A stretch of 15,175 nt of DNA, from the NCBI GenBank assembly GCA_016212345.1, contig JACRGM010000034.1:1-15175 (forward strand), written 5' to 3'. Below the pieces are notes generated by a model. The model did not search any database. It had not been told where the DNA came from and saw only the letters and a program-made list of their open reading frames with translations. How positions within the stretch are numbered: position 1 is the first letter of the stretch; every line of letters starts with the position of its first letter. Made by a program: the position numbers and the translations under genes. This DNA comes from Nitrospinota bacterium. Its GTDB lineage: Bacteria > Nitrospinota > Nitrospinia > SZUA-224. Shown in pieces: positions 35 to 13,185 of this stretch.

Positions 35-241
35 ATGGCAGTAGAAAAGGCAATTGGTTCGTCCAGTCTGATTGAGGTTATTGACCGAATCCTGGATAAG
101 GGTGTTGTGGTTGATGCCTGGATAAGGGTCTCTTTAGTGGGTATTGAAATACTCGCCATAGAGGCCAGGGTAGTGGTGGCATCAGTAGAGACCTACCTGA
201 AGTACGCTGAGGCAATAGGTTTGACTGCAACAGCAGCCTAA
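35..241 (+). CDS. gvpA: Gas vesicle major structural protein GvpA (68 aa)
   Basis: Translation [64 protein letters not shown] is near-identical to the conserved GvpA core ([35 protein letters not shown]). GGAGGTG RBS lies 8 nt upstream of the ATG. Confidence 0.95.
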
Positions 242-333
242 GGATGGTCAACGACCAAGGAGGATTCTTGCCGAATTATCCTTATGCCTCGATATATGGA
301 GGGGAAAGAGTATAATTCGCCAAGAATTCCTTC

Positions 334-340
334 TTTTTTT
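334..340 (+). terminator. Oligo-T tract (T7) about 95 nt downstream of gvpA, preceded by a weak AGAA/TTCT mini-stem; possible archaeal-type or weak intrinsic terminator
   Basis: ttccttcttttttt is seen directly. No strong GC stem precedes it, so this is tentative. A run of Ts alone suffices for archaeal termination. Confidence 0.25.
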
Positions 341-354
341 AAAGAGGAAAATTT

Positions 355-447
355 AATCACCCCCACCTGGCCTCACCCCTCAATTTAGGTTATAGGTTAT
401 AGGGATTTGGGCAATTACCTAACACCTAACACCCAAAGGGGGTGGGT
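355..447. repeat. G/C-tract structured element: outer inverted repeat CACCCCCACC / GGGGGTGGGTG enclosing tandem heptamers (GGTTATA x2 and CCTAACA x2)
   Basis: Seen directly. C-runs at 362-371 pair with G-runs at 437-447. Similar C-run/G-run elements are at 7615-7705 and 9656-9732. Confidence 0.4.
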
Positions 448-494
448 GGCATGGACAAACTTGTTTGTCCGTGCCTTTGTGGTAGGGTGAAAGG
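444..494 (+). promoter_or_regulatory. Module B copy 1: GGGTGGCATGGACAAACTTGTTTGTCCGTGCCTTTGTGG, with the perfect 18-bp palindrome GGACAAAC-TT-GTTTGTCC at 453-470
   Basis: The perfect 8-2-8 palindrome is seen directly. The same module recurs at 3751-3811, 4408-4450 and 7698-7738. Candidate operator or transcription-factor site. Confidence 0.5.
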
Positions 495-510
495 TATTTT
501 TAGAGGAAAT

Positions 511-560
511 CCTCATACCGACCATAGTCGGCACAAAGTAGGGATGAAAATTTGATCACA
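511..560 (+). repeat. Module A copy 1: CCTCATACCGACCATAGTCGGCACAAAGTAGGGATGAAAATTTGATCACAC, with a CCGAC/GTCGG hairpin
   Basis: Related copies at 4371-4407, 7563-7619 and 9621-9662. Carries a GGAGG-like site followed by ATGAAAAT. Confidence 0.5.
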
Positions 561-570
561 CTCACTAGTC

Positions 571-620
571 CCCTCTCCCCTTTGGGGAGAGGGCAAGGGT
601 GAGGGGCTATTTTCAGAGGA
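571..620 (+). promoter_or_regulatory. Module C copy 1: 10-bp stem CCCTCTCCCC-TTT-GGGGAGAGGG, then a G-run tract GGGCAAGGGTGAGGGG, then the GGCTATTTTCAGAGGA leader
   Basis: Seen directly. Near-identical copy at 9831-9880 upstream of gvpG. Lies immediately upstream of the 626 ATG. Confidence 0.5.
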
Positions 621-625
621 AGGTA

Positions 626-1228
626 ATGCCTTTATCAGAAGATATGAAAGATATTGTCGAGGATATGATTTCTTCTTATGATATGAGGATCCAGAGTATC
701 GGGGCCATCTTTGATACTACTTACCAACTCCTCGAAGGTCTTCAGGATTCCTTTCTTGATACAAAACAAGAACAAGAAAGGATTAATGCAGAATTACGGG
801 AGAATCTTGCCAAAAACGGGTCTTTAAGGAGGAAGGATTTTGACAATATGATGCAGGGCATCCTTTTAACACAGGAGGAAAGGGAAAGGGAGGTAAGGAA
901 TCTGTTAAAGACCTACCTTAATGAACAAAAGAAGATGATACATGCCTTAAGAGAGAATCTGGCTAAGATCAAAGATGCTATTGCCAAAGGTGATATTCAA
1001 AGGGTCAAGGATTTCCGTGGCATGATTATTGAAAAAATATTTGCCAAACCAGAAGAAAGAAAGGAAGATCTTACCTCTAATCTAAAGAGGTTTCAAAGAG
1101 AACAAAAGGCCTTGTCAAAAAGACTTAAACGACTTTTAGCAAAAGGGGATGAACTTCAGATAAAGGATATCAAATTAATGCTCAAGGAATTCAAAAACAA
1201 ACATAATAAAGAGCGAATAGCTCACTAG
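626..1228 (+). CDS. Charged alpha-helical repeat protein, paralog 1 (N-terminal EDMISSYDMR motif; internal repeats LRENLAK...KDF..M). Candidate GvpC-like gas-vesicle shell-associated protein
   Basis: The tool ORF starts at GTG 599 inside module C. ATG at 626 with AGAGGAAGG RBS is preferred. Position right after gvpA, K/E/R-rich repeat structure, and paralogy with the next ORF. Not recognisably cyanobacterial GvpC. Confidence 0.75.
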   Translation: MPLSEDMKDIVEDMISSYDMRIQSIGAIFDTTYQLLEGLQDSFLDTKQEQERINAELRENLAKNGSLRRKDFDNMMQGILLTQEEREREVRNLLKTYLNEQKKMIHALRENLAKIKDAIAKGDIQRVKDFRGMIIEKIFAKPEERKEDLTSNLKRFQREQKALSKRLKRLLAKGDELQIKDIKLMLKEFKNKHNKERIAH

Positions 1229-1242
1229 GGAAGGAGGTAAAT

Positions 1243-2031
1243 ATGGGAATGGGAATAGCTACTGATATTAAAAGGCTTGGTGAAGACATTATTACTTCTT
1301 ATGATATGCGAGTAAAGGCCATGGGAGAGCGAGTAAAGGTGGTAGGAGAATTAGTAAGAGATACTCACAATATGGTTAAAGGGTTTCAGGCAAGGGATAA
1401 AGAGAGAAGGGATAATCTCAAGGCATATCTTACAAAGTCCGAAGAAGATAGACTTAAGGATTTCAAGATAACGATGGATGATCTTGTAAGGTGTAAAGAA
1501 GATAGAGGTAAGGATTTGAAAATAATGATAGCCGAGATTAAAAGATTTATAGTGGAGACGAGGCAGGCGAATGCAAAATTAATGAAACAGAGTAGAGAAG
1601 ATAGAAATAAGGAAGTAGCAGAACTCTTAGAAAGATTTGCAAAGGATCATGAGGCCATGGCATCTGAACTTGAGAAAGGCCTTGAGAAAGGAGAGAGAGA
1701 GAGACTTAGAGACTTCGGGTCAATGATGAGTAGTATTCAAAAATCTATTCAGGATGTAATTAACGATACCAAGGGATTAATTGAGGGAGTTCGGGAAAAA
1801 CTGAGAAATAAAAAATTCCTTGCCTTCTTAGAGGATTTCAAGACCGAAAGGGAAAAGATGGCTGCTAATTGGCAGAAACTCTCTGAGGAGATGTATAAGA
1901 GGAGAGGCGGAAAGATATCGAGGGTAAAGGTAGAAGCTGATGAAGAGGTAAAGACCGTTGAAGAGGTAGTAGAAGCAAGGTCAAACAAAAAGCTAAAGCT
2001 AAACAAAAAAAGAGGAGTGAAGAAGATATGA
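1243..2031 (+). CDS. Charged repeat protein, paralog 2 (GEDIITSYDMR motif; RLKDF/RLRDF repeats; Lys-rich C-terminal tail)
   Basis: GGAAGGAGGT RBS 6 nt upstream. N-terminus and the KDF..M repeats align with the previous ORF. Confidence 0.75.
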   Translation: MGMGIATDIKRLGEDIITSYDMRVKAMGERVKVVGELVRDTHNMVKGFQARDKERRDNLKAYLTKSEEDRLKDFKITMDDLVRCKEDRGKDLKIMIAEIKRFIVETRQANAKLMKQSREDRNKEVAELLERFAKDHEAMASELEKGLEKGERERLRDFGSMMSSIQKSIQDVINDTKGLIEGVREKLRNKKFLAFLEDFKTEREKMAANWQKLSEEMYKRRGGKISRVKVEADEEVKTVEEVVEARSNKKLKLNKKRGVKKI

Positions 2032-2969
2032 TAGAAGAGATGACAACAGTCCTTGAACCGAGTCCTCTACCAGATTTTGTAGAAACAAAGTATATTAAGG
2101 ATATTGTCAATAGGGCACTCTCTTATATTAAGGCTGGTTTTCCGGTCCATTTTAGAGGAGGCTCAGGTACTGGCAAGACAACACTCGCTATGCATATAGC
2201 AAGTAAGCTTAAAAAGCCTGTGGTAATGATTCACGGGGATGAAGAGCTCACAACCTCTGATCTAACAGGTGGAGAACATGGCTACAGATTTAGGAAGGTT
2301 GTTGATCGCTTTGTCTCTCGAGTTTTAAAGCTAGAAGAGGATATGGTCAAACATTGGGTTGACAATCGTTTAACTCTGGCCTGTAGATATGGATTTACCC
2401 TTATCTATGATGAATTCACCCGCTCAAAACCAGAGGCGAATAATATCCTTCTTTCTGTCTTCCAGGAGAAGATGATGGATTTGCCTATGGGAAGAGGTGG
2501 GGAGGAGTCATATTTAAAGGTTGATCCAGAGTTTACAGCTATCTTCACCAGCAACCCTGAGGAATATGCCGGGGTTCACAAGAGTCAGGATGCCTTAAGG
2601 GATAGGATGATAACTATGGATCTAGACTACTTTGACTATGATACAGAGGTAGCAATCACTCAGGGGAAATCCAAACTCTCTAGATCAGATGCTGAGATGA
2701 TAGTTAATATTGTTCGTGGTCTGAGAGAATCTGGAAAGTGTGAGTTTGCCCCAACTGTTCGGGGCTGCATTATGATTGCCAAGACACTTAAGACTCAAGG
2801 TATTACTCCTGCCAAATCCAACGGCGCCTTTATGGCGATCTGCCATGATATTCTATCCTCTGAAACGAGTCGAATTGGCTCTAAAACAAATCAAAATAGG
2901 GTCAAGAAGGTAGTTAAAGGGATTATCGAGAAGGAACTTGGCATGGGAAAGACGAGGAACTTGGCATGA
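2028..2969 (+). CDS. gvpN: Gas vesicle AAA+ ATPase GvpN
   Basis: Walker A FRGGSGTGKTTLAMHIA and Walker B-like LIYDEF, typical MoxR-like GvpN length of 313 aa. ATG overlaps the upstream stop (ATGA), suggesting translational coupling. Confidence 0.92.
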   Translation: MIEEMTTVLEPSPLPDFVETKYIKDIVNRALSYIKAGFPVHFRGGSGTGKTTLAMHIASKLKKPVVMIHGDEELTTSDLTGGEHGYRFRKVVDRFVSRVLKLEEDMVKHWVDNRLTLACRYGFTLIYDEFTRSKPEANNILLSVFQEKMMDLPMGRGGEESYLKVDPEFTAIFTSNPEEYAGVHKSQDALRDRMITMDLDYFDYDTEVAITQGKSKLSRSDAEMIVNIVRGLRESGKCEFAPTVRGCIMIAKTLKTQGITPAKSNGAFMAICHDILSSETSRIGSKTNQNRVKKVVKGIIEKELGMGKTRNLA

Positions 2970-2999
2970 GGAGAAAGAAGAAGTAGAAGGAGGACGACA

Positions 3000-3341
3000 A
3001 TGAGAGGAATTAATAACCTTAAAGGGCTCCATGCATTAAGGACTATGGATAGCACAAAGAGACGTTCCATACCGAGGATTCAAACCTCGATTTATTTAGA
3101 TATGTATATGTTGAATACAGAGAAGACAAGACTCTTAAGAGAAGACGAAAGACTAGGGGCAAGGAGATATGCTATTAGAAAGCGACTAGAAGAAATAGAG
3201 CAAGAGATGAATAAGTTACAAGAGGCTGAGACCGATGAGAGCACAGTTAAGGCCAGGACAAACAGAATCCTTTCAAAACATCCTTACATTCAGAAAGATG
3301 GGGGTAAAAAAGAGTGGAAGAAGATACCTTTAAATTATTAG
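3000..3341 (+). CDS. Hypothetical basic coiled-coil protein (113 aa) inside the gvp operon
   Basis: AGGAGG RBS 7 nt upstream. K/R/E-rich, no recognisable family. Position between gvpN and gvpJ. Confidence 0.6.
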   Translation: MRGINNLKGLHALRTMDSTKRRSIPRIQTSIYLDMYMLNTEKTRLLREDERLGARRYAIRKRLEEIEQEMNKLQEAETDESTVKARTNRILSKHPYIQKDGGKKEWKKIPLNY

Positions 3342-3372
3342 GGAAGAAGAATAAAGAGCAAGGGAGATTAAA

Positions 3373-3672
3373 ATGGCTGATCAAATAGTGCATGCGGTTC
3401 AGACAACAAACCTTGCGGATATCTTAGAGAGGGTCTTAGAGAAAGGTATAGTTATTGCTGGAGATATTAAGATTCAGATCGCTGATGTAGATCTACTTAA
3501 TATTAAGATCCGTCTTTTAATTTCCTCTGTGGATAAGGCTATGGAGATGGGGATAAATTGGTGGCAAAGCGATTCTTATCTTTCTTCAGAAAGAGAAGAG
3601 AGAGAATTAGAGAAAGAAAATAAAACCTTAAAGAAGAGATTAAGGCAGTTAGAGGCAAAGACAAAAATTTAA
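3373..3672 (+). CDS. gvpJ: Gas vesicle protein GvpJ (GvpA/J/M family)
   Basis: LADILERVLEKGIVIAGDIKIQIADVDLLNIKIRLLISSVDKAMEMGINWW matches the GvpJ pattern, including the WW. Charged C-terminal tail. Confidence 0.9.
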   Translation: MADQIVHAVQTTNLADILERVLEKGIVIAGDIKIQIADVDLLNIKIRLLISSVDKAMEMGINWWQSDSYLSSEREERELEKENKTLKKRLRQLEAKTKI

Positions 3673-3729
3673 AATTCAAAACATTCTGTATGCAATGCTT
3701 GTTTAGAATTTAGATATTAGGATTTAGAA

Positions 3730-3739
3730 TTTATATAAA
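3730..3739 (+). promoter_or_regulatory. TTTATATAAA: archaeal TATA-box-like element (or a bacterial -10-like AT box), 21 nt upstream of the module B palindrome
   Basis: Seen directly. The identical 10-mer is at 7684-7693 in the same relative context (gatttaRaatTTATATAAA). Confidence 0.35.
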
Positions 3740-3750
3740 GCTGGGTGGCT

Positions 3751-3831
3751 GGGTGGCATGGACAAACTTGTTTGTCCGTGCTTGTTTGTCCGTGCCTTTG
3801 TTGGAGGCTGAAAGGCTATTTTCAGAGGAAG
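3751..3831 (+). promoter_or_regulatory. Module B copy 2 (palindrome 3760-3777) with an internal duplication of the half-site TTGTTTGTCCGTGC (3768-3781 and 3782-3795), followed by the GGCTATTTTCAGAGGAA leader
   Basis: Seen directly. Immediately upstream of the Hsp20/gvpH-like ATG at 3836. Confidence 0.5.
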
Positions 3832-3835
3832 AAAT

Positions 3836-4384
3836 ATGGCAAAAGAAAAGAAAAAAAAGGAAGAAGAGAATTTAGATATTGATTTTGGTATAGGAAAGAT
3901 CAGTTTAGGAGGGTTATTTAAAGGTATAGAGAAATTAGTTGACCTGGCTGCAGATCTAAAAGAGGCTGGTGGTGAGATCAAGAAAGAAGGTGAAATAGAT
4001 CTAGGTCATCTTAAAGATGGTATGAAAGGGGTGTTTGGCTTTTCTATAAAGACAAGTATAGGGGGAAGGCCAATAGTTGAGTCATTTGGCAATATTAAGA
4101 AGAGCCCTAAAGGGCCTACAGTCAAGGAGGAGAGAGAGCCTATTACAGATATCTTTGACGAAAAAGAGGAGGTTCGTGTCTACGCTGAGATGCCAGGCGT
4201 GAATGAAGGGGATATAAGATTAGATCTAAAGGGGGATATATTAGATATCTCAGCCCAAAGCGGAGAGAGAAAGTATCATAAAGAGGTTTTACTTCCAGAA
4301 AAGGTAAATCCTGAGACCCTTACATCGAGTTATAAAAATGGTGTATTAGAGGTAAAGATGAAGAAACCCTCATGCCCATCATAG
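3836..4384 (+). CDS. Small heat-shock (Hsp20/alpha-crystallin domain) protein in the GvpH position, with a Gly/Lys-rich N-terminal region
   Basis: C-terminal VRVYAEMPGVNEGDIRLDLKGDILDISAQ...KYHKEVLLPEKVNPETLTSSYKNGVLEVKMKK fits the alpha-crystallin domain pattern (PGV..EDI, I.LP, NGVL.V). Confidence 0.85.
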   Translation: MAKEKKKKEEENLDIDFGIGKISLGGLFKGIEKLVDLAADLKEAGGEIKKEGEIDLGHLKDGMKGVFGFSIKTSIGGRPIVESFGNIKKSPKGPTVKEEREPITDIFDEKEEVRVYAEMPGVNEGDIRLDLKGDILDISAQSGERKYHKEVLLPEKVNPETLTSSYKNGVLEVKMKKPSCPS

Positions 4385-4407
4385 TCAGCACAAAGAGGGA
4401 TGAAAAT

Positions 4408-4473
4408 GGGTGGCATGGACAAACTTGTTTGTCCGTGTCTTTGTGGTAGGGTGAAAGGCTATTTTCTGAGGAA
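4408..4473 (+). promoter_or_regulatory. Module B copy 3 (palindrome 4417-4434) plus GGCTATTTTCTGAGGAA leader abutting the 4474 ATG. A partial module A (4371-4407) precedes it and overlaps the Hsp20 gene 3' end
   Basis: Seen directly. Confidence 0.5.
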
Positions 4474-5412
4474 ATGGGATTAACAGGATTAAGAGATGAT
4501 CCGCTAAAGCTGATATTATTTGGTGGCAAAGGGGGGGTAGGAAAGACAACCTGTGCCTCAAGTACAGCCCTTTACTGTTTATCATTGGATTTTAAGACAC
4601 TAATCTTTTCAACAGACCCAGCACATTCACTTTCTGATAGTTTGGGCCAGAAGATCGGCGATGAAATAAAAGAGGTACAAGGGATAAAAAATTTAAGTGC
4701 CCTTGAAATAAACTCAAAAAAGGCCTTTTCTAGATTTAAGATACAATATGAAGACCAAATAAGAAAGATATTAGATACCTCTACCTATTTAGATCAGGAA
4801 GATATCAACTCTATCTTTGCCTTACCCATCCCTGGTATAGATGAGATAATGGGATTTAAGACCATGGTTGACCTCATTGAGGAGGCAAGGTTTGACAAAT
4901 TCATTGGGGATACAGCACCTACGGGCCATGCCTTAAGACTTTTAACCTTACCTGAATTATTAGATGACTGGATTAAGGTGATGGCAAAGTTGAGGTGGAA
5001 ATATAGGTATATGGTAGAAAGATTTTCTGGGGGATATAAACCTGATGAAGGTGATGACTTTCTATTAAGTATGAAAAGGAGTGTAAAGAGGATTGAAGGT
5101 CTACTCCGGGATGATCAAAGGTGTGAATTTATCGTGGTAACAGTACCGGAGGATATGGCGATCTTAGAGACAGAGAGATTAATAGAAACATTAGGTAGAT
5201 ATGGGATAAAGGTAAGGCAGTTAGTGGTAAATAATGTATTAGAGTCAAATGGTTGTCCATTTTGTAGAGAAAGAAGAAAAGAACAGGAGAGATATATAGA
5301 TCGAATAAGGACAAGATTCAGTAATTTAAGGCTGACAATTACCTTTTTACAGCCTCGAGAGGTTAAAGGGGTAGAGGCCTTGAATAATTTTAAGGATATT
5401 TTATTTCAATAA
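4474..5412 (+). CDS. ArsA/Get3-family (anion-transporting / tail-anchored-protein targeting type) P-loop ATPase
   Basis: Deviant Walker [11 protein letters not shown], ArsA/Get3 signature [13 protein letters not shown], and a CPFC (CxxC) motif near the C-terminus as in Get3 zinc-binding dimers. Confidence 0.88.
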
Positions 5413-7586
5413 TGAAAAAAGAGAACACAATCTTAACCCTAAGAGTCAAGGAGGCCTTATCAAAGGATGTAGGTAGGGCAGTTGCAAGGATTGACCCTGA
5501 AGATATGAAGACCCTGGGATTAGAGGTTGGTGAGATTATAGAGATTGAAGGTAAAAGGAAGACCCCTGCTAAGGTGATGCCCTGTTATGCTGAAGATAGA
5601 GGGAAAGGGATTATCCAAATGGATGGGATATCCAGAGAAAATTCACAGGTTGGACTGGACGAAAAGGTAACGATCCATAGAATCGGTTATAAAGTCGCAA
5701 AGAAGATTATACTCTCTCCTTTGACTGTATCCAGTTTATCTACAAGAGACAAAGACACTAAATATATCGGCTCACTTATAGAGGGATTGCCTGTAACTAT
5801 TGGAGATAGGGTAAGGGCTACACTCTTTGGGTCAAGGTCTTGTGACTTTAAGGTACAGGATACTCTTCCTCCTGATAGTGTAGTCTTGATAAGCCCAACT
5901 ACCTTAATAGAGATGAAGACAAAAGGGTTAGAGGAGACTATACAAGCCAAGGTTTCATACGAAGATATCGGTGGACTTACCCCACAGATCCAAAGGATTA
6001 GGGAAACGATTGAACTACCATTAAGATATCCTCAAGTATTTGAGAGATTAGGGATCGATGCGCCCAAAGGTGTCTTTCTTTATGGACCACCTGGGACAGG
6101 AAAGACCTTGATTGCTCGGGCAGTGGCTAATGAAACAGATGCCTATTTTACCAGTATAAGTGGGCCTGAGATTATGGGTAAATTCTACGGTGAGAGCGAG
6201 GGACGACTACGTTCGATCTTTCAGGAGGCTCAGGCAAATGCCCCTGCTATTATATTTTTAGATGAGATTGAGGCTATTGCCCCAAAGAGGGAAGATATGG
6301 GTGCTGAAAAACAGGTTGAGCGCAGAGTAGTAGCCCAACTCTTGGCATTAATGGATGGATTAGAGTCCAGGGGTAATGTTATTGTCGTCGCTGCAACCAA
6401 CCTCCCTAATATAGTAGATCCAGCCCTGAGGAGGCCAGGCCGATTTGATAGAGAGATCGCTATCCCTATCCCTGACAAAAATGGGAGATTAGAGATATTA
6501 CAGATTCACACAAGGGGTATGCCTCTATCAGAGGATGTTAGCTTAGGAAAATTAGCCGAAATTACCCATGGATTTGTAGGTGCGGATTTAGAGGCACTGG
6601 CAAGGGAATCTGCGATGTCTGCTTTAAGAAAGATATTACCGAAGATCGACTTTGAGATGGCTGATATCCCTTATGAGACACTAATGAAGATAGAGGTGAC
6701 AATGGATAATTTCTTGGAGGCAATGAAAGAGGTTGAGCCGTCAGCAATACGGGAGGTCTTTGTTGAGGTCCCAGATGTCAAATGGGAAGATGTGGGGGGC
6801 TTAGAGGATATAAAAGAAGAGCTGAAAGAGGCGATAGAGTGGCCACTTAAGCATTCAGAGATCTTTAAGATGGCAAATACAAATCCACCTAAAGGTATAC
6901 TCCTTTATGGGGCCCCAGGGACAGGGAAGACATTCTTGGCCAAGGCAGTAGCTAATGAAAGTGGGGTAAACTTTATTTCGGTAAAAGGCCCTTCTCTTAT
7001 CTCAAAATATGTGGGAGAAAGTGAAAAGGCAATCCGTGAGGTATTTAAGACAGCAAAACATGCCTCACCTAGTATCTTATTTTTTGATGAAATAGATAGT
7101 CTTGTCCCTCGAAGGGGTTCAAGTAGCACAGACGCACATGTAACAGAGAGGGTGATAAGTCAATTCTTAACAGAGATGGATGGGATTGAGGAACTTAAAG
7201 GGGTAGTAGTCTTGGCCGCTACCAATAGATTGGATTTAGTCGATCCAGCATTATTGAGAAGTGGGAGATTTGACCTTTTGCTTGAGTTACATAAACCAGA
7301 TGATAAAACCAGACAAGAGATATTCAAGATACATACTAAAGATAAACCGCTTGCTAAGGATGTCAATTTAATAGACTTAGCAAAAGAGACTGAAGGTTGG
7401 GTGGGGTCGGATATTGAGTTTATCTGCCGAAGGGCCTCTATGTTGGCGATAAGGGAATTCATCAACCAGAGAGGGAAGGGCACAAGTCAAGGCACAGGGC
7501 TTAAGATTTCAAATAGGCATTTTGAAGAGGCGATTAAGTTGATCCACAACCAAAAAGGAGATCCTCATACCGAATACCGACCTTAG
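5412..7586 (+). CDS. CDC48/VAT/p97-type double-AAA unfoldase (N domain + D1 + D2)
   Basis: N-domain [33 protein letters not shown]1 has [17 protein letters not shown] and IIFLDEIE. D2 has [17 protein letters not shown] and [11 protein letters not shown] overlaps the upstream TAA (taATG). Last codons lie inside module A copy 3. Confidence 0.93.
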
Positions 7587-7619
7587 TCGGCACAAAGGAG
7601 GATGAAAATTGGATCACAC
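7563..7619 (+). repeat. Module A copy 3: CCTCATACCGAATACCGACCTTAGTCGGCACAAAGGAGGATGAAAATTGGATCACAC
   Basis: Overlaps the last about 8 codons and stop of the CDC48 gene. Confidence 0.5.
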
Positions 7620-7705
7620 CCCCACCCAGCCTCCCCCCTCAAGGGGATTGAGGGGGTATTTTTATTAGATATTAGGATTTAAAATTTATATAAAACTGGG
7701 GTGGC
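7620..7705. repeat. C-run/G-run structured element: hairpin CCCCCTCAA-GGGGA-TTGAGGGGG (7637-7659) nested between CCCCCACCC (7619-7629) and TGGGGTGG (7698-7705)
   Basis: Seen directly. Includes TTTATATAAA at 7684-7693. Confidence 0.4.
7684..7693 (+). promoter_or_regulatory. TTTATATAAA TATA-box-like element, 14 nt upstream of the module B palindrome
   Basis: Identical to 3730-3739. The flanking sequence gatttaaaatTTATATAAAactgggg parallels copy 2. Confidence 0.35.
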
Positions 7706-7738
7706 ATGGACAAACTTGTTTGTCCGTGCTTTTGTGGA
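7698..7738 (+). promoter_or_regulatory. Module B copy 4 (palindrome 7707-7724)
   Basis: The tool ORF start at 7706 (MDKLVCPC...) is simply the ATGGACAAACTTG of the repeat. Confidence 0.5.
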
Positions 7739-7759
7739 ATGGGTGTAGGGATCTACATT

Positions 7760-8860
7760 ATGGGTAAGCAAGGAAAATATATCTATGGAATTATAAATTC
7801 TAATGGAGAAGGGTCTTTCATGCCTTATAGAGCCACTGACTGTGAGGAGGTTTATCCTGTCAGAGATATGGAATCTGGCCAGGAATCGAGGATCTCTAAC
7901 ATGGTTTATACTATCCCTTATCGGGATATCTCAGCAGTAGTAAGTGACTCAGATATAGTTGATTATACCTATATGCATAGAGATGCCCTAGCAAGACTTT
8001 TAGTTAAACATCAAAAGGTTAATGAAAGGATTATGGGTTTAGGTCTTGCAATCATCCCTATGAGATTAGGGACATTTGCCGTTGATGAAACTGAGGTTAG
8101 GGATGTCTTAAATAAGGGATATAGTCTTATAAAAGAGATAGCTGAAGAGGTACAGGACAAGATAGAGATCGATATTGTTGCCACATGGGCTGATTTCCCT
8201 TCAGTACTTAAAGAAGTTGGAGAGGAGAAAGAGATTAGGGAATTTAAAGAAAGGGTATTAGATAGTCCTAATGGTGTATCTATAGACGATCAGATGAGGG
8301 TAGGGGTTATGGTTAAAGAGGCACTAGATGAAAAGAGAAAGAGATATGCCGAAGGGATACAAAATACCCTAAACCCTATTTATCAGGATAGTAAGATCCA
8401 TGAACTTATGGATGATAAGATGGTTATTAATGCAGCCTTTCTTATAGAAAGATCTAAACAAAGGTATCTTTATGGAAAGATAGAAGGGCTAAATGTTGAA
8501 TTTAGAGAGAGATTAAATTTTAGGTGTGTAGGTCCACTTCCTACCTATAGTTTTTATACACTTGAGGTAAAAAAGATGCGATTTGAGGAGATAGATTGGG
8601 CAAGGAAGAGATTTGGCCTAAATTACGCTACCAATAAAGATGAGATTAAGAAGACCTATTATCGCTTAGCCTCTTATCTTCACCCTGATAAAAATCCGAA
8701 TCTCCCTAATATAGAGAGGGAATTCGATGATGTAACTAAGGCCTATAAGATACTCATTGACTATTGCCTATCCTGCGAAAGGTCAGGTCAAGGAGTAGGT
8801 TATTCCTTCAATAAGGAGGAATTTAATAAGAATGTAATATTAGTTAAGATAAGGGAGTGA
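7760..8860 (+). CDS. GvpF/GvpL-family protein fused to a C-terminal J-domain (DnaJ-like, HPD at 8681-8689)
   Basis: GvpF/L hallmarks MVINAAFLIERSKQ and GPLPTYSFY. C-terminal EIKKTYYRLASYLHPDKNPNLPNIEREFDDVTKAYKIL is a J-domain with the HPD motif. Preferred start is ATG 7760 (MGKQGKYIYGIINS, matching the M..YIYG N-termini of the other GvpF paralogs). The start is uncertain; the tool start at 7706 lies in the repeat. Confidence 0.82.
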   Translation: MGKQGKYIYGIINSNGEGSFMPYRATDCEEVYPVRDMESGQESRISNMVYTIPYRDISAVVSDSDIVDYTYMHRDALARLLVKHQKVNERIMGLGLAIIPMRLGTFAVDETEVRDVLNKGYSLIKEIAEEVQDKIEIDIVATWADFPSVLKEVGEEKEIREFKERVLDSPNGVSIDDQMRVGVMVKEALDEKRKRYAEGIQNTLNPIYQDSKIHELMDDKMVINAAFLIERSKQRYLYGKIEGLNVEFRERLNFRCVGPLPTYSFYTLEVKKMRFEEIDWARKRFGLNYATNKDEIKKTYYRLASYLHPDKNPNLPNIEREFDDVTKAYKILIDYCLSCERSGQGVGYSFNKEEFNKNVILVKIRE

Positions 8861-8862
8861 TT

Positions 8863-9636
8863 ATGGAAAAGGAAGGAAGGTATATATATTGCATAATAGC
8901 TGATAGAGAACCTAAGACCTTTGGTAGACTGGGGATTGGTGGTAGGCAAGATGAATTGTATACAATCTGCCTTGACGATATCGCAATGGTAGTGAGCAAT
9001 TCTCCAATAATAGAATATTCAGTATCAAGAGAAAATCTACTTGCCCATGAAAGGGCAATTGAGGAGGTAATGAAGGAATATACTGTTTTACCAGTCCGGT
9101 TTGGTACAATTGTTGAGAATGAAGAGAAGATTAAAAAGATTTCAGAAAAGGAATATGACAGATTTAAGGGGTTACTTAATAAGTTTGAAGGCAAAAGAGA
9201 ACTAGGGCTGAAGGCAATATTTAAAGAGGATGCGATTTTTATGGATATCTTAGAGAGATATGAAGAGATAAGGGTCTTAAAAGAGAAGATTGCGAAGTTG
9301 CCTTCCAATGTCTCATATTATCAATCTATAGATATAGGAAGGTTGGTGGAGCAGGCATTAGAAAAGGAAAAGGGAAGATGTAAAGAAGAGATATGGGATA
9401 TCTTAATGCCCATGGCAGAGGATATAAAGATTAATCCCACCTACGGTGAAAGGATGATCATAAATGCTGCATTTTTAGTAAATAAAGATAAAGAAGGAGA
9501 GTTTGACCAGAATGTTCAGAAACTTGATGCAAGATATGGTGATAAGATCAAATTTAAATATATAGGGACAGTCCCGCCATTTAATTTTGTTAATTTGGTA
9601 ATTAATACAGAGGAAATCCTTATGCCGATAAAGTAG
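8863..9636 (+). CDS. GvpF/GvpL-family gas vesicle protein, paralog 2
   Basis: RYIYCII N-terminus, MIINAAFLVNKDKEGEFD, and GTVPPFNFVNL. ATG 8863 with AAGGGAG RBS (the tool GTG 8857 is less likely). Overlaps the upstream stop. Confidence 0.88.
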   Translation: MEKEGRYIYCIIADREPKTFGRLGIGGRQDELYTICLDDIAMVVSNSPIIEYSVSRENLLAHERAIEEVMKEYTVLPVRFGTIVENEEKIKKISEKEYDRFKGLLNKFEGKRELGLKAIFKEDAIFMDILERYEEIRVLKEKIAKLPSNVSYYQSIDIGRLVEQALEKEKGRCKEEIWDILMPMAEDIKINPTYGERMIINAAFLVNKDKEGEFDQNVQKLDARYGDKIKFKYIGTVPPFNFVNLVINTEEILMPIK

Positions 9637-9662
9637 GCACAAAGGAGCATGAAAATACACAC
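9621..9662 (+). repeat. Module A copy 4 (partial): tATGCCGATAAAGTAGGCACAAAGGAGCATGAAAATACACAC, overlapping the 3' end of the GvpF gene
   Basis: Aligns with 531-560 and 7585-7619. Confidence 0.4.
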
Positions 9663-9732
9663 CCCTTAATCCCCTCTTTTTAGAGGGGAAACTTTAGAAC
9701 TCCCCTCTATTAAGAGGGGTTGGGGGTGTGTT
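9656..9732. repeat. Three-stem element: outer stem ACACACCCC / GGGGTGTGT enclosing two near-identical hairpins, CCCCTCT-TTTT-AGAGGGG and CCCCTCT-ATTA-AGAGGGG
   Basis: Seen directly. Candidate structured RNA or REP-like element. Confidence 0.45.
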
Positions 9733-9774
9733 ATAAAGGTATTTTCGTATGAAAAACCATAAATAGATATGTAG

Positions 9775-9795
9775 GGGCAGGCCTTGTGCCTGCCC
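9775..9795. other. GC hairpin GGGCAGGC-CTTGT-GCCTGCCC (8-bp perfect stem) with no downstream T-run
   Basis: Seen directly. Not a canonical intrinsic terminator on either strand. Confidence 0.4.
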
Positions 9796-9830
9796 TTGAA
9801 AAAAGGTATTTTCAGAGGAACCCTCAGCTC

Positions 9831-9880
9831 CCTCTCCCCTTTGGGGAGAGGGTAAGGGTGAGGGGGTATTTTCAGAGGAA
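9831..9880 (+). promoter_or_regulatory. Module C copy 2 (hairpin + G-run tract + GGTATTTTCAGAGGAA leader) immediately upstream of gvpG. An additional GGTATTTTCAGAGGAA lies at 9805-9820
   Basis: Near-identical to 571-620. Confidence 0.5.
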
Positions 9881-9888
9881 TATTAAAG

Positions 9889-10128
9889 ATGTTTTTGATT
9901 GATAATATATTACTTGCCCCATTAAAAGGTTTGGCTTGGTTAGGTGATAAGATTAATGATGTGGCAGAAAGGGAATTCTCAGATGAGGGGCGGATAAAAG
10001 AAGAATTTATGGAATTGCAGCTATGGTTTGAAATGGATGAAATAAGTGAGGAGGAATATGAGAAACAGGAGAAGGTACTTTTAGCACGATTAGAGGCTAT
10101 TAGGAAGGCAAAGGAGGAGGGGATATAG
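9889..10128 (+). CDS. gvpG: Gas vesicle protein GvpG
   Basis: MFLIDNILLAPLKGLAWLGDKINDVAERE...ISEEEYEKQEKVLLARLEAI matches the GvpG N-terminal LxPxKGLxW motif and the C-terminal EE..E..LL.RL pattern. Confidence 0.9.
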   Translation: MFLIDNILLAPLKGLAWLGDKINDVAEREFSDEGRIKEEFMELQLWFEMDEISEEEYEKQEKVLLARLEAIRKAKEEGI

Positions 10129-10130
10129 AA

Positions 10131-10394
10131 ATGATAGAAAATATAGAGGAGGTCAGAGATGTGGTTACTGAGTTTTTAAAGAGGACCCTTAAAGTAGAGG
10201 ATGTAAAGGTGATTAAGGCTAGAAAGGTTGAGGATGGCTGGGAGACCGAGGTAGAGGCATATGAGGAGAGTTCCTTTATAAAGTCCCTTGGCCTTCCTAC
10301 AAGGGTACAAGATAAGAATATCTATGCTGTTAAATTAAATAGCAACATAGTTGAATCCTATGAGCGCAAGGAATCATCAAAGACAACCAAATGA
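10131..10394 (+). CDS. gvpO: GvpO-like gas vesicle protein (short, 87 aa)
   Basis: VEDGWETEVEAYEESSFIKSLGLPTRVQDKNIYAVKL...VESYER parallels the GvpO C-terminal core (DGW..VVEVVE, PDTQD, YEVTLD, Y.R) as I recall it. GGAGGAGGGG RBS. Confidence 0.7.
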   Translation: MIENIEEVRDVVTEFLKRTLKVEDVKVIKARKVEDGWETEVEAYEESSFIKSLGLPTRVQDKNIYAVKLNSNIVESYERKESSKTTK

Positions 10395-10409
10395 TGGCGG
10401 CTAATTTAG

Positions 10410-11198
10410 ATGATCAAAGAGTTGATATATCTCTATTGTGTTAGCCAGAAGGGACCGAATCTTAAAGGTTTGGATGGGGGTAATATCTATTATGTCCACC
10501 ATCATGGCATTTATGCTGTAGTTAGTAAGGTCTCAGAGGATGAATTTAGCGAGGAGAATCTGAAGAAGAATCTATCTGATATAGAGTGGATTAAGGCAAA
10601 GGTAAAGATACACGAAAATGTAATAGAAAGGATTATACCATATAGCTCTGTTATTCCCTTTAAGTTTGGGACCATATTCAATACCGAAGATAATCTAAAA
10701 GGAATGCTTGAGGAATATATAGAGAGATTTAATGATAATCTAATGTATCTAGATAGTAAAGAGGAATGGGGAGTAAAGATCTATTGCGATATAGATAGGC
10801 TAAAAGAGCGAATTATTAAAGAAGATGGTGATATCCTAAAGATCAAAGAGGAGATCAATCTCTCCTCCCCTGGCAAGGGATATTTTCTAAAAAAAAAGAG
10901 AGATGAATTGATAAGAGAAGGTGTAAATAAGAGAATCAATGAATATAGCCAGGTGAGTTTTGAGATATTAAAGGAGCTTAGTTCTGATGAGCAGATAAAT
11001 AAGTTGTTACCCAAAGAGGTAACTGAGAGGAAAGAGGAGATGGTCTTAAATTCGGCATTCTTAGTTGAAAAAGAGAGGGTACTAGAGTTTGTCCAAGCAG
11101 TAGATGGCCTTAACACAAGATATAATAATAATGGCCTTAATCTTGATTATACTGGCCCCTGGCCACCTTATAATTTTGTTGGTGAGTTAATGAGTTAA
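10410..11198 (+). CDS. GvpF/GvpL-family gas vesicle protein, paralog 3
   Basis: LIYLYCV N-terminus, MVLNSAFLVEKERVLEF, and GPWPPYNFVGEL. Confidence 0.88.
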   Translation: MIKELIYLYCVSQKGPNLKGLDGGNIYYVHHHGIYAVVSKVSEDEFSEENLKKNLSDIEWIKAKVKIHENVIERIIPYSSVIPFKFGTIFNTEDNLKGMLEEYIERFNDNLMYLDSKEEWGVKIYCDIDRLKERIIKEDGDILKIKEEINLSSPGKGYFLKKKRDELIREGVNKRINEYSQVSFEILKELSSDEQINKLLPKEVTERKEEMVLNSAFLVEKERVLEFVQAVDGLNTRYNNNGLNLDYTGPWPPYNFVGELMS

Positions 11199-11419
11199 TG
11201 ACTATGAAAGATGTTGTTACAAGATCAAAAGATGTAACCCTCTTAGAGGTCTTAGATAGGGTTTTAAATAAAGGTGTGGTTATCGTCGGAGATATAACAA
11301 TCTCTGTTGCTGATGTCGATCTTATATATCTAGGGTTAAGGGTATTGCTTAGTTCAGTGGAGACTATTACGCACTTAAGAGGTGCTCCGATTGAAGGCCC
11401 AATGCAGGAGCCGACTTGA
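11198..11419 (+). CDS. Small GvpA/J/M-family hydrophobic protein (GvpM/GvpS-like)
   Basis: TLLEVLDRVLNKGVVIVGDITISVADVDLIYLGLRVLLSSVETI matches the GvpA-family core. 73 aa. ATG overlaps the upstream TAA. Confidence 0.85.
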   Translation: MTMKDVVTRSKDVTLLEVLDRVLNKGVVIVGDITISVADVDLIYLGLRVLLSSVETITHLRGAPIEGPMQEPT

Positions 11420-12144
11420 TGAGGGTATATCTCTACGCTATAATAGATTCGAATGATAAGATAAGGAAAGCGATCAAAGGATTAGAAAAGGCCTCTGTTT
11501 ATAATATACCTTATCGTGATATAGGTTTAATTGTAAGCAAACTTAATGGACAGGTTCAAGATATAAGCATAGACCGTGCTATAGAACATGAGGGGGTTGT
11601 AGAAACCTTGATGGAAGATTTTACTCTCTTGCCTGTCAGATTCCTTACCCTCTTTGACAAAGAGGAGGATCTCCTTTCTGTGATAAAAGGGTATTACAGT
11701 GACTTCATAGAGAATTTAGACCGACTTCGTAATAAGATAGAGTTTGGTATAAAGGTGATCTGGCCTGGCAATACGATAAGAGAGCGTATAATGAATAACT
11801 ATCCTAAAGACGATTATCCAGCATCTATATCGGGCGATTCGCCTGGGAAGGATTTTATAAAAGCGAGGTTTAAAAGGTATAAAATAACCAAGGGATTCGA
11901 AGATGAGGCAGAGAGATGCATTGCAGTTATAGATAATCTTTTTAGTCTATCTGTCACTGAAAAGAGGCTTGAAAGACTTAAAAGTGAAAATCTCCTTCTG
12001 AATGCCTATTATCTGGTTGAGAAAGAAAGGCAAGATGATTTTAGACGATCATTCGAACAATTAAAGAGTAGCTTCAACGACTTTAAATATCTATTCAGCG
12101 GTCCCTGGCCTCCTTACAATTTTATCATACCTAAGGTCATTTAA
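11419..12144 (+). CDS. GvpF/GvpL-family gas vesicle protein, paralog 4
   Basis: RVYLYAII N-terminus, LLLNAYYLVEKERQDDF, and GPWPPYNFIIP. ATG 11419 with AGGAG 8 nt upstream (the tool TTG 11416 is less likely). Confidence 0.85.
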   Translation: MRVYLYAIIDSNDKIRKAIKGLEKASVYNIPYRDIGLIVSKLNGQVQDISIDRAIEHEGVVETLMEDFTLLPVRFLTLFDKEEDLLSVIKGYYSDFIENLDRLRNKIEFGIKVIWPGNTIRERIMNNYPKDDYPASISGDSPGKDFIKARFKRYKITKGFEDEAERCIAVIDNLFSLSVTEKRLERLKSENLLLNAYYLVEKERQDDFRRSFEQLKSSFNDFKYLFSGPWPPYNFIIPKVI

Positions 12145-12155
12145 AGAAAAGAAGG

Positions 12156-12494
12156 ATGATGCATAAAAGGATCGAAACAGATTCCCCTGGGGTATTTATT
12201 GAAGAGCTAAAGAAGATAGATGATACCCTTCCCAAAAGGATTGATGCTAATCCCCAAAATGTAGAAAAGGGTCTAGCTAAGTTAGTCCTAACACTTATAG
12301 AGTTAATTAGAAGACTTTTGGAAAGACAGGCTATGAGAAGGGTAGAATCAGGCTCTCTCACCGATGAAGAGGTAGAAAGGATTGGTGAGACCTTGATGAA
12401 ATTAGAAGATAAGATGCAAGAACTTAAAGGGATATTTGGTCTTAAAGATGAAGAATTGAATCTAAGTTTAGGTCCTTTAGGGGATCTGATGTAA
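12156..12494 (+). CDS. gvpK: Gas vesicle protein GvpK
   Basis: GLAKLVLTLIELIRRLLERQAMRRVESGSLTDEEVERIGETLMKLE matches the GvpK conserved core. Confidence 0.9.
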   Translation: MMHKRIETDSPGVFIEELKKIDDTLPKRIDANPQNVEKGLAKLVLTLIELIRRLLERQAMRRVESGSLTDEEVERIGETLMKLEDKMQELKGIFGLKDEELNLSLGPLGDLM

Positions 12495-12495
12495 T

Positions 12496-13185
12496 ATGAA
12501 GAGACTGATTTATGTCCCCATTATACATTCGAGTACAGATCTTGGCTCTATAGCAAAGGATGTAAGTAAGATAGGTATAACAGACCTAGGTAAAGAGCTC
12601 TGGGAAAGACATATAAAGACAGTTGAAGGCTTTTGGGATGTTATATCACATTATTTTGATTCTGTAGATGTATCTGGGGTAAAGATATACCAGGATGGAA
12701 TGGTAGCAGAGGGAGAAGTGGGGGAGAAGATAGTTGAAGAAGGGGTAAAATCAGGAAGCAAAAATTATGAGTTAGTCTCAAATCTCCTTAAAAGAGGGGC
12801 TCATTTAGTTAAGACAGAGGATTTTAATCTTGTTAAGGAGGAGCGCGATAGGTTACTTGCCATAATCCGGTCCCGATCTATTACTCATAGGTTGATTGCA
12901 TTTATAAAATATAAGCTAATCAAAAATAGGCTCTTAGATAAAAGGGATAATTTTATTGCCAAAAGGATAGAGGAGACCTTAAATCCCAGCGAAAGAGGTA
13001 TCCTTTTTATTGGCGCCTATCACAATATAAAGAAGAGGCTTCCAAAAGATATCCATATTAAAGAGATAAAGGATTCAGATAAGATAAAAGAATATCAAAG
13101 ATTACTCCCTTTTTATAATAGAAAAAGAGAACGTTTTGAGGAACTAGGTAGATATCTGCTATCAGAGATTAACGAGCCCATTTAA
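12496..13185 (+). CDS. Hypothetical 229-aa protein, last gene of the gvp operon (start 2 nt after the gvpK stop)
   Basis: Long ORF tightly coupled to gvpK, with codon usage like its neighbours. No family recognised. Confidence 0.65.
   Translation: MKRLIYVPIIHSSTDLGSIAKDVSKIGITDLGKELWERHIKTVEGFWDVISHYFDSVDVSGVKIYQDGMVAEGEVGEKIVEEGVKSGSKNYELVSNLLKRGAHLVKTEDFNLVKEERDRLLAIIRSRSITHRLIAFIKYKLIKNRLLDKRDNFIAKRIEETLNPSERGILFIGAYHNIKKRLPKDIHIKEIKDSDKIKEYQRLLPFYNRKRERFEELGRYLLSEINEPI

Follow-up and report, generated by a model that had tools for sequence, protein, structure and literature searches.

The question raised by this locus is whether the gas-vesicle (gvp) gene cluster of an uncultured Nitrospinota bacterium carries its own protein-folding machinery and, if so, what that machinery would do for the vesicle. 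The window, by which we mean the whole stretch of 15,175 nucleotides analysed, contains 18 co-directional cluster genes on the (+) strand between positions 35 and 13185, and by its gene content it is predicted to hold a complete gvp operon. The cluster is flanked by genes for a HicB antitoxin and a DUF4143 ATPase. Pfam and NCBIfam profile searches placed the four proteostasis calls, Hsp20, Get3/ArsA, CDC48 and a GvpF–J-domain fusion, above curated thresholds. A gvp cluster with chaperone and ATPase genes is thus confirmed, and the preliminary description was right both in these domain calls, which it had proposed for checking by profile searches, and in placing the genes within the gvp cluster on the same strand. 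The features are the following.

35..241, + strand: gvpA, major shell protein, 68 aa (PF00741, 56 bits)
448..475, + strand: REP-like palindrome copy 1, gvpA–cc1 gap (hairpin -19.1 kcal/mol, z=-3.1)
626..1228, + strand: cc1, K/E-rich helical protein with internal repeats of ~55 aa
1243..2031, + strand: cc2, second helical protein with repeats, paralogous to cc1
2028..2969, + strand: gvpN, AAA+ (AAA_5) ATPase (TIGR02640, 341 bits, cut-off 267; PF07728)
3000..3341, + strand: orf113, conserved coiled-coil protein (coiled-coil matches sub-threshold only)
3373..3672, + strand: gvpJ-like GvpA-family protein, 99 aa (PF00741, 59 bits)
3755..3782, + strand: REP-like palindrome copy 2, gvpJ–Hsp20 gap
3836..4384, + strand: Hsp20/alpha-crystallin small heat-shock protein (sHsp), GvpH-like (PF00011, 37.5 bits)
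4412..4439, + strand: REP-like palindrome copy 3, Hsp20–ArsA gap
4474..5412, + strand: single-domain Get3/TRC40/ArsA-class ATPase, 312 aa, CxxC zinc motif (PF02374)
5412..7586, + strand: CDC48/VAT-type double-ring AAA+ unfoldase, 724 aa (CDC48_N, CDC48_2, two AAA modules, lids)
7634..7656, + strand: terminator-like GC-rich hairpin 3' of CDC48, followed by TATTTTTATT
7703..7730, + strand: REP-like palindrome copy 4, CDC48–GvpF-J gap, source of a false ORF start at 7706
7760..8860, + strand: GvpF/L paralog with C-terminal J-domain (GvpF-J), 366 aa (PF06386, 165 bits; PF00226, 47 bits)
8857..9636, + strand: GvpF/L paralog 2 (PF06386, 226 bits)
9889..10128, + strand: gvpG (PF05120, 74 bits)
10131..10394, + strand: distant GvpO-like protein, 87 aa (PF05800 sub-threshold, E=0.056)
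10410..11198, + strand: GvpF/L paralog 3 (PF06386, 212 bits)
11198..11419, + strand: gvpM/S-like GvpA-family protein, 73 aa (PF00741, 61.5 bits)
11416..12144, + strand: GvpF/L paralog 4 (PF06386, 168 bits)
12156..12494, + strand: gvpK (PF05121, 118.6 bits)
12496..13185, + strand: orf229, conserved final cluster gene (TraB/TIKI/ChaN/erythromycin-esterase-like fold)

The canonical gene list given earlier held for gvpA, N, J, G, K and the four F/L paralogs, but its gvpO is a sub-threshold match in the window. All 11 orthologs of this protein matched the GvpO profile, the best with 7e-5. GvpA-family genes number three (35-241, 3373-3672 and 11198-11419) and not two as had been counted. The window GvpA shares 82-96% identity with the GvpA of related loci; the gvpJ-like gene lies 3' of gvpK in relatives, whereas here it stands 5' of Hsp20.

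Four conserved cluster genes, cc1, cc2, orf113 and orf229, gave no significant family match in Pfam or NCBIfam. The cc1 and cc2 products are paralogs (E=5e-12), and cc1, whose ATG at 626 comes after the shared leader TATTTTCAGAGGAA, carries three copies of the repeat motif [RKQ]x[KR]D[FIL]xxM and is syntenic in 12 loci; its position, in a gvpA–C–N order, makes it a GvpC-like candidate. Orf113, named 'ankyrin' in GenBank, is syntenic in 13 loci with invariant R22, I24, P25, Y32 and Y113, the last being the C-terminal tyrosine. Orf229 is a putative TraB/TIKI-like hydrolase.

The Hsp20 protein, found in 17 loci, scored 149.8 against a cut-off of 140 with the NCBIfam archaeal Hsp20 profile (NF041800) and 23.6 bits against 22.5 with ArsA_HSP20 (PF17886), the HSP20-like domain of ArsA proteins. 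It also matched the GvpH profile (E=0.0066); GvpH, which is sHsp-like, belongs to the standard haloarchaeal gvp gene set. The final crystallin-domain strand is also the end of the protein in the window, which has no C-terminal tail. The adjacent ATPase, labelled 'ArsA family ATPase' in GenBank, matched PF02374 with an E-value of about 3e-79 and TIGR00345 with 267 bits (cut-off 135), with weak ParA/CbiA/MinD matches besides. Its closest solved structures are Chlamydomonas ARSA1 (5zme) and the archaeal Get3s 3ug6 and 3zq6, with the CxxC aligned, and it aligned end to end with M. jannaschii Get3, including the helix 7-9 insert. The P-loop, switch I/II and C261/C264 of the CxxC are invariant across 12 orthologs.

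The CDC48 protein, 'CDC48 family AAA ATPase' in GenBank, scored 946 bits with TIGR01243 (cut-off 803), and its best PDB match was the archaeal unfoldase VAT of Thermoplasma (5g4f, E=1e-225). Among 121 sequences the Walker A/B motifs, the two aromatic pore loops (KFYG and KYVG), the arginine fingers and the sensor-1 Asn were essentially invariant; the proteasome-docking HbYX tail was absent in 120 of the 121, and the window protein lacks it.

The J-domain (PF00226, cut-off 27.8 bits) lies at the C-terminal end of the first of the GvpF paralogs, with its HPD at residues 308-310. Both the GvpF and the J domain, with HPD, were present in the window protein and in 120 of 120 best homologues. An alternative start at 7706 was rejected, its first 18 codons being a translated REP-like palindrome, and ATG 7760 is the true start; the GenBank protein (MBI5182926.1) has 366 aa. 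The AlphaFold model (pLDDT 88, pTM 0.79) matched the GvpF crystal structures 6l5d and 4qsg in Foldseek (E=1e-14 to 3e-12), and its predicted structure superposed on J-domains with ~1 Å rmsd, including the DnaK-bound one in 5nro. A GvpF–J fusion is likewise present in the cultured, gas-vacuolate Octadecabacter arcticus. No Hsp70 gene was found in any cluster inspected, so the partner of the J-domain is assumed.

In 21 loci of about ten phyla the Hsp20–(ArsA)–CDC48–GvpF-J–GvpF block occupies the interval from gvpN/orf113 to gvpG; these are the related loci with upstream sequence available in a sample baited with GvpF-J and close CDC48 relatives. The carriers include Omnitrophota, Desantisbacteria, Ignavibacteria, Planctomycetota, Verrucomicrobiota, WOR-3, Atribacterota and Nitrospinota, among others; carriers of the full block are all uncultured MAGs, whose gas vesicles are predicted from genes. 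In the reverse test, for which homologues were picked partly by taxon label, five of five CDC48 homologues (~80% identical) lay within the same block of gvp clusters. At least 120 sequence clusters were found for CDC48 (79-83% identity) and at least 120 for GvpF-J, many of them on contigs whose lengths recur in both homologue lists. Since the same gene order recurs in at least 21 independent loci of many phyla, the arrangement is far beyond chance, and the chaperone/ATPase genes are not, as the preliminary description had allowed, insertions absent from orthologous gvp clusters. The operon type is widespread and horizontally mobile, and these genes are the most conserved part of this multi-phylum cluster type. 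ArsA is absent from its slot in six loci (L002, L005, L014, L016, L024, L025), and in only two of them does the cluster contain a two-domain ArsA at another position.

Co-transcription of the cluster genes is likely. In the window the ArsA and CDC48 genes overlap by one base, and 4-nt overlaps join the stop of GvpF-J to the start of GvpF2 and the stop of cc2 to the start of gvpN. Nine of 12 loci have ArsA→CDC48 spacings of -4, -1 or +2 nt, three of the loci without ArsA have Hsp20→CDC48 spacings of -4 or +4 nt, and GvpF-J is followed by GvpF2 mostly after 1-5 nt. Such junctions are of operonic type, and in the window the ArsA/CDC48 and GvpF-J/GvpF2 pairs are translationally coupled. The larger intergenic gaps are occupied by REP-like palindromes, and the terminator-like hairpin (-17.2 kcal/mol) was no better than shuffled sequences (z=-0.7). 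The REP-like hairpins and this site, lying around Hsp20 and ArsA and after CDC48, could uncouple transcription there.

What might these genes do? We consider it slightly better than an even chance that the operon supplies a client-specific proteostasis module of its own, serving the very hydrophobic shell proteins of the GvpA family (GvpA, GvpJ, GvpM). From gene context and intact motifs, the genes would most likely act as a hold–deliver–unfold system dedicated to these aggregation-prone proteins. GvpF–GvpA binding has been shown in Halobacterium and Bacillus megaterium. In the scheme that we infer here, newly made GvpA-family subunits would be bound by the GvpF/L paralogs, GvpF being a proposed GvpA chaperone (PMC11445434; PMC9501494) and GvpA expression being proteotoxic (PMC11445434). 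The J-domain on one GvpF paralog would then recruit the housekeeping DnaK/Hsp70, its intact HPD triggering the ATPase at the GvpF-bound client. The tail-less Hsp20 may serve as an ATP-independent holdase, and a zinc-clamped Get3-like dimer may shield the hydrophobic segment and release it in an ATP-dependent manner at the growing vesicle, by analogy with tail-anchor targeting and with Get3d, the known Get3–alpha-crystallin domain fusion (PMC10248533). Finally, the CDC48/VAT hexamer would act on off-pathway oligomers or aggregates of GvpA, unfolding them by threading, or, alternatively, strip subunits from their chaperones, in either case for re-use.

The gene context fits assembly and disassembly alike and does not by itself separate them. 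CDC48/VAT-type enzymes pull subunits out of stable assemblies, and the present one has both rings and its pore loops intact. CDC48 with Hsp20, DnaK/J and perhaps the orf229 hydrolase might thus dismantle collapsed or surplus vesicles and recycle or degrade GvpA, which we regard as possible though rather unlikely. An sHsp, a J-domain and a double-ring AAA+ make up the parts list of a disaggregase, and although CDC48 lacks the proteasome-docking tail, a conserved putative hydrolase closes the operon. Such turnover would provide a means of losing buoyancy or of clearing very stable shell debris. However, the genes are embedded among the biogenesis genes gvpN, gvpF and gvpG and translationally coupled to them. 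This speaks for their being expressed together as vesicles form, and a Get3-type targeting ATPase is a better fit to delivery than to demolition. Turnover and the hold–deliver–unfold role are not mutually exclusive.

A role in organisation or regulation seems improbable. Get3/ArsA would space or position vesicles with Volactin, like the SIMIBI proteins ParA and MinD, while CDC48 would control the level of a regulator as in the haloarchaeal GvpD–GvpE pair, GvpD being a known NTPase regulator (PMC9501494). Sister clusters do have the actin-like Volactin adjoining GvpF and NtrC-type regulators upstream, and the weak ParA/CbiA/MinD matches of ArsA point the same way; but the ArsA/Get3 score (about 1e-79) dwarfs that for ParA/MinD (about 1e-6), the CxxC specific to Get3 and the insert region that binds clients are conserved, the coupling of CDC48 is to GvpF-J and not to regulators, and the window cluster keeps all four proteostasis genes with neither Volactin nor a regulator gene. 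We give very little credence to the genes being general stress chaperones that travel in a mobile gvp island without a gas-vesicle-specific role. The cluster is mobile across phyla (between-phyla identity about 80% for CDC48, over 90% for GvpA), and REP-like elements and the flanking HicB and DUF4143 genes are present. Loss or shuffling would be expected of such passengers, yet position, order and codon overlaps are kept in at least 21 loci and in all five reverse look-ups, and at least 120 sequence clusters have the J-domain and a Gvp protein in one polypeptide. To our knowledge, moreover, CDC48-type ATPases stand outside the standard bacterial stress set.

The arrangement had been put forward as a pathway not described before. 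This is only partly so: ArsA homologues and hsp20 in gvp operons were published in 2010 and proposed to energise gas-vesicle biogenesis (PMC2963123), whereas the literature searched yielded no account of CDC48 or of the J-domain fusion in gvp clusters, and only the ArsA/Hsp20 part of the block is already described there. According to published gene lists, the model systems Anabaena, B. megaterium, Serratia and Halobacterium build their vesicles with none of CDC48, Get3 and a J-domain (PMC9501494), and vesicle assembly as such can therefore do without the module. Where the hold–deliver–unfold module is present, the role proposed for CDC48 would be comparable to that of ClpB in the sHsp–Hsp70–Hsp100 disaggregation triad.

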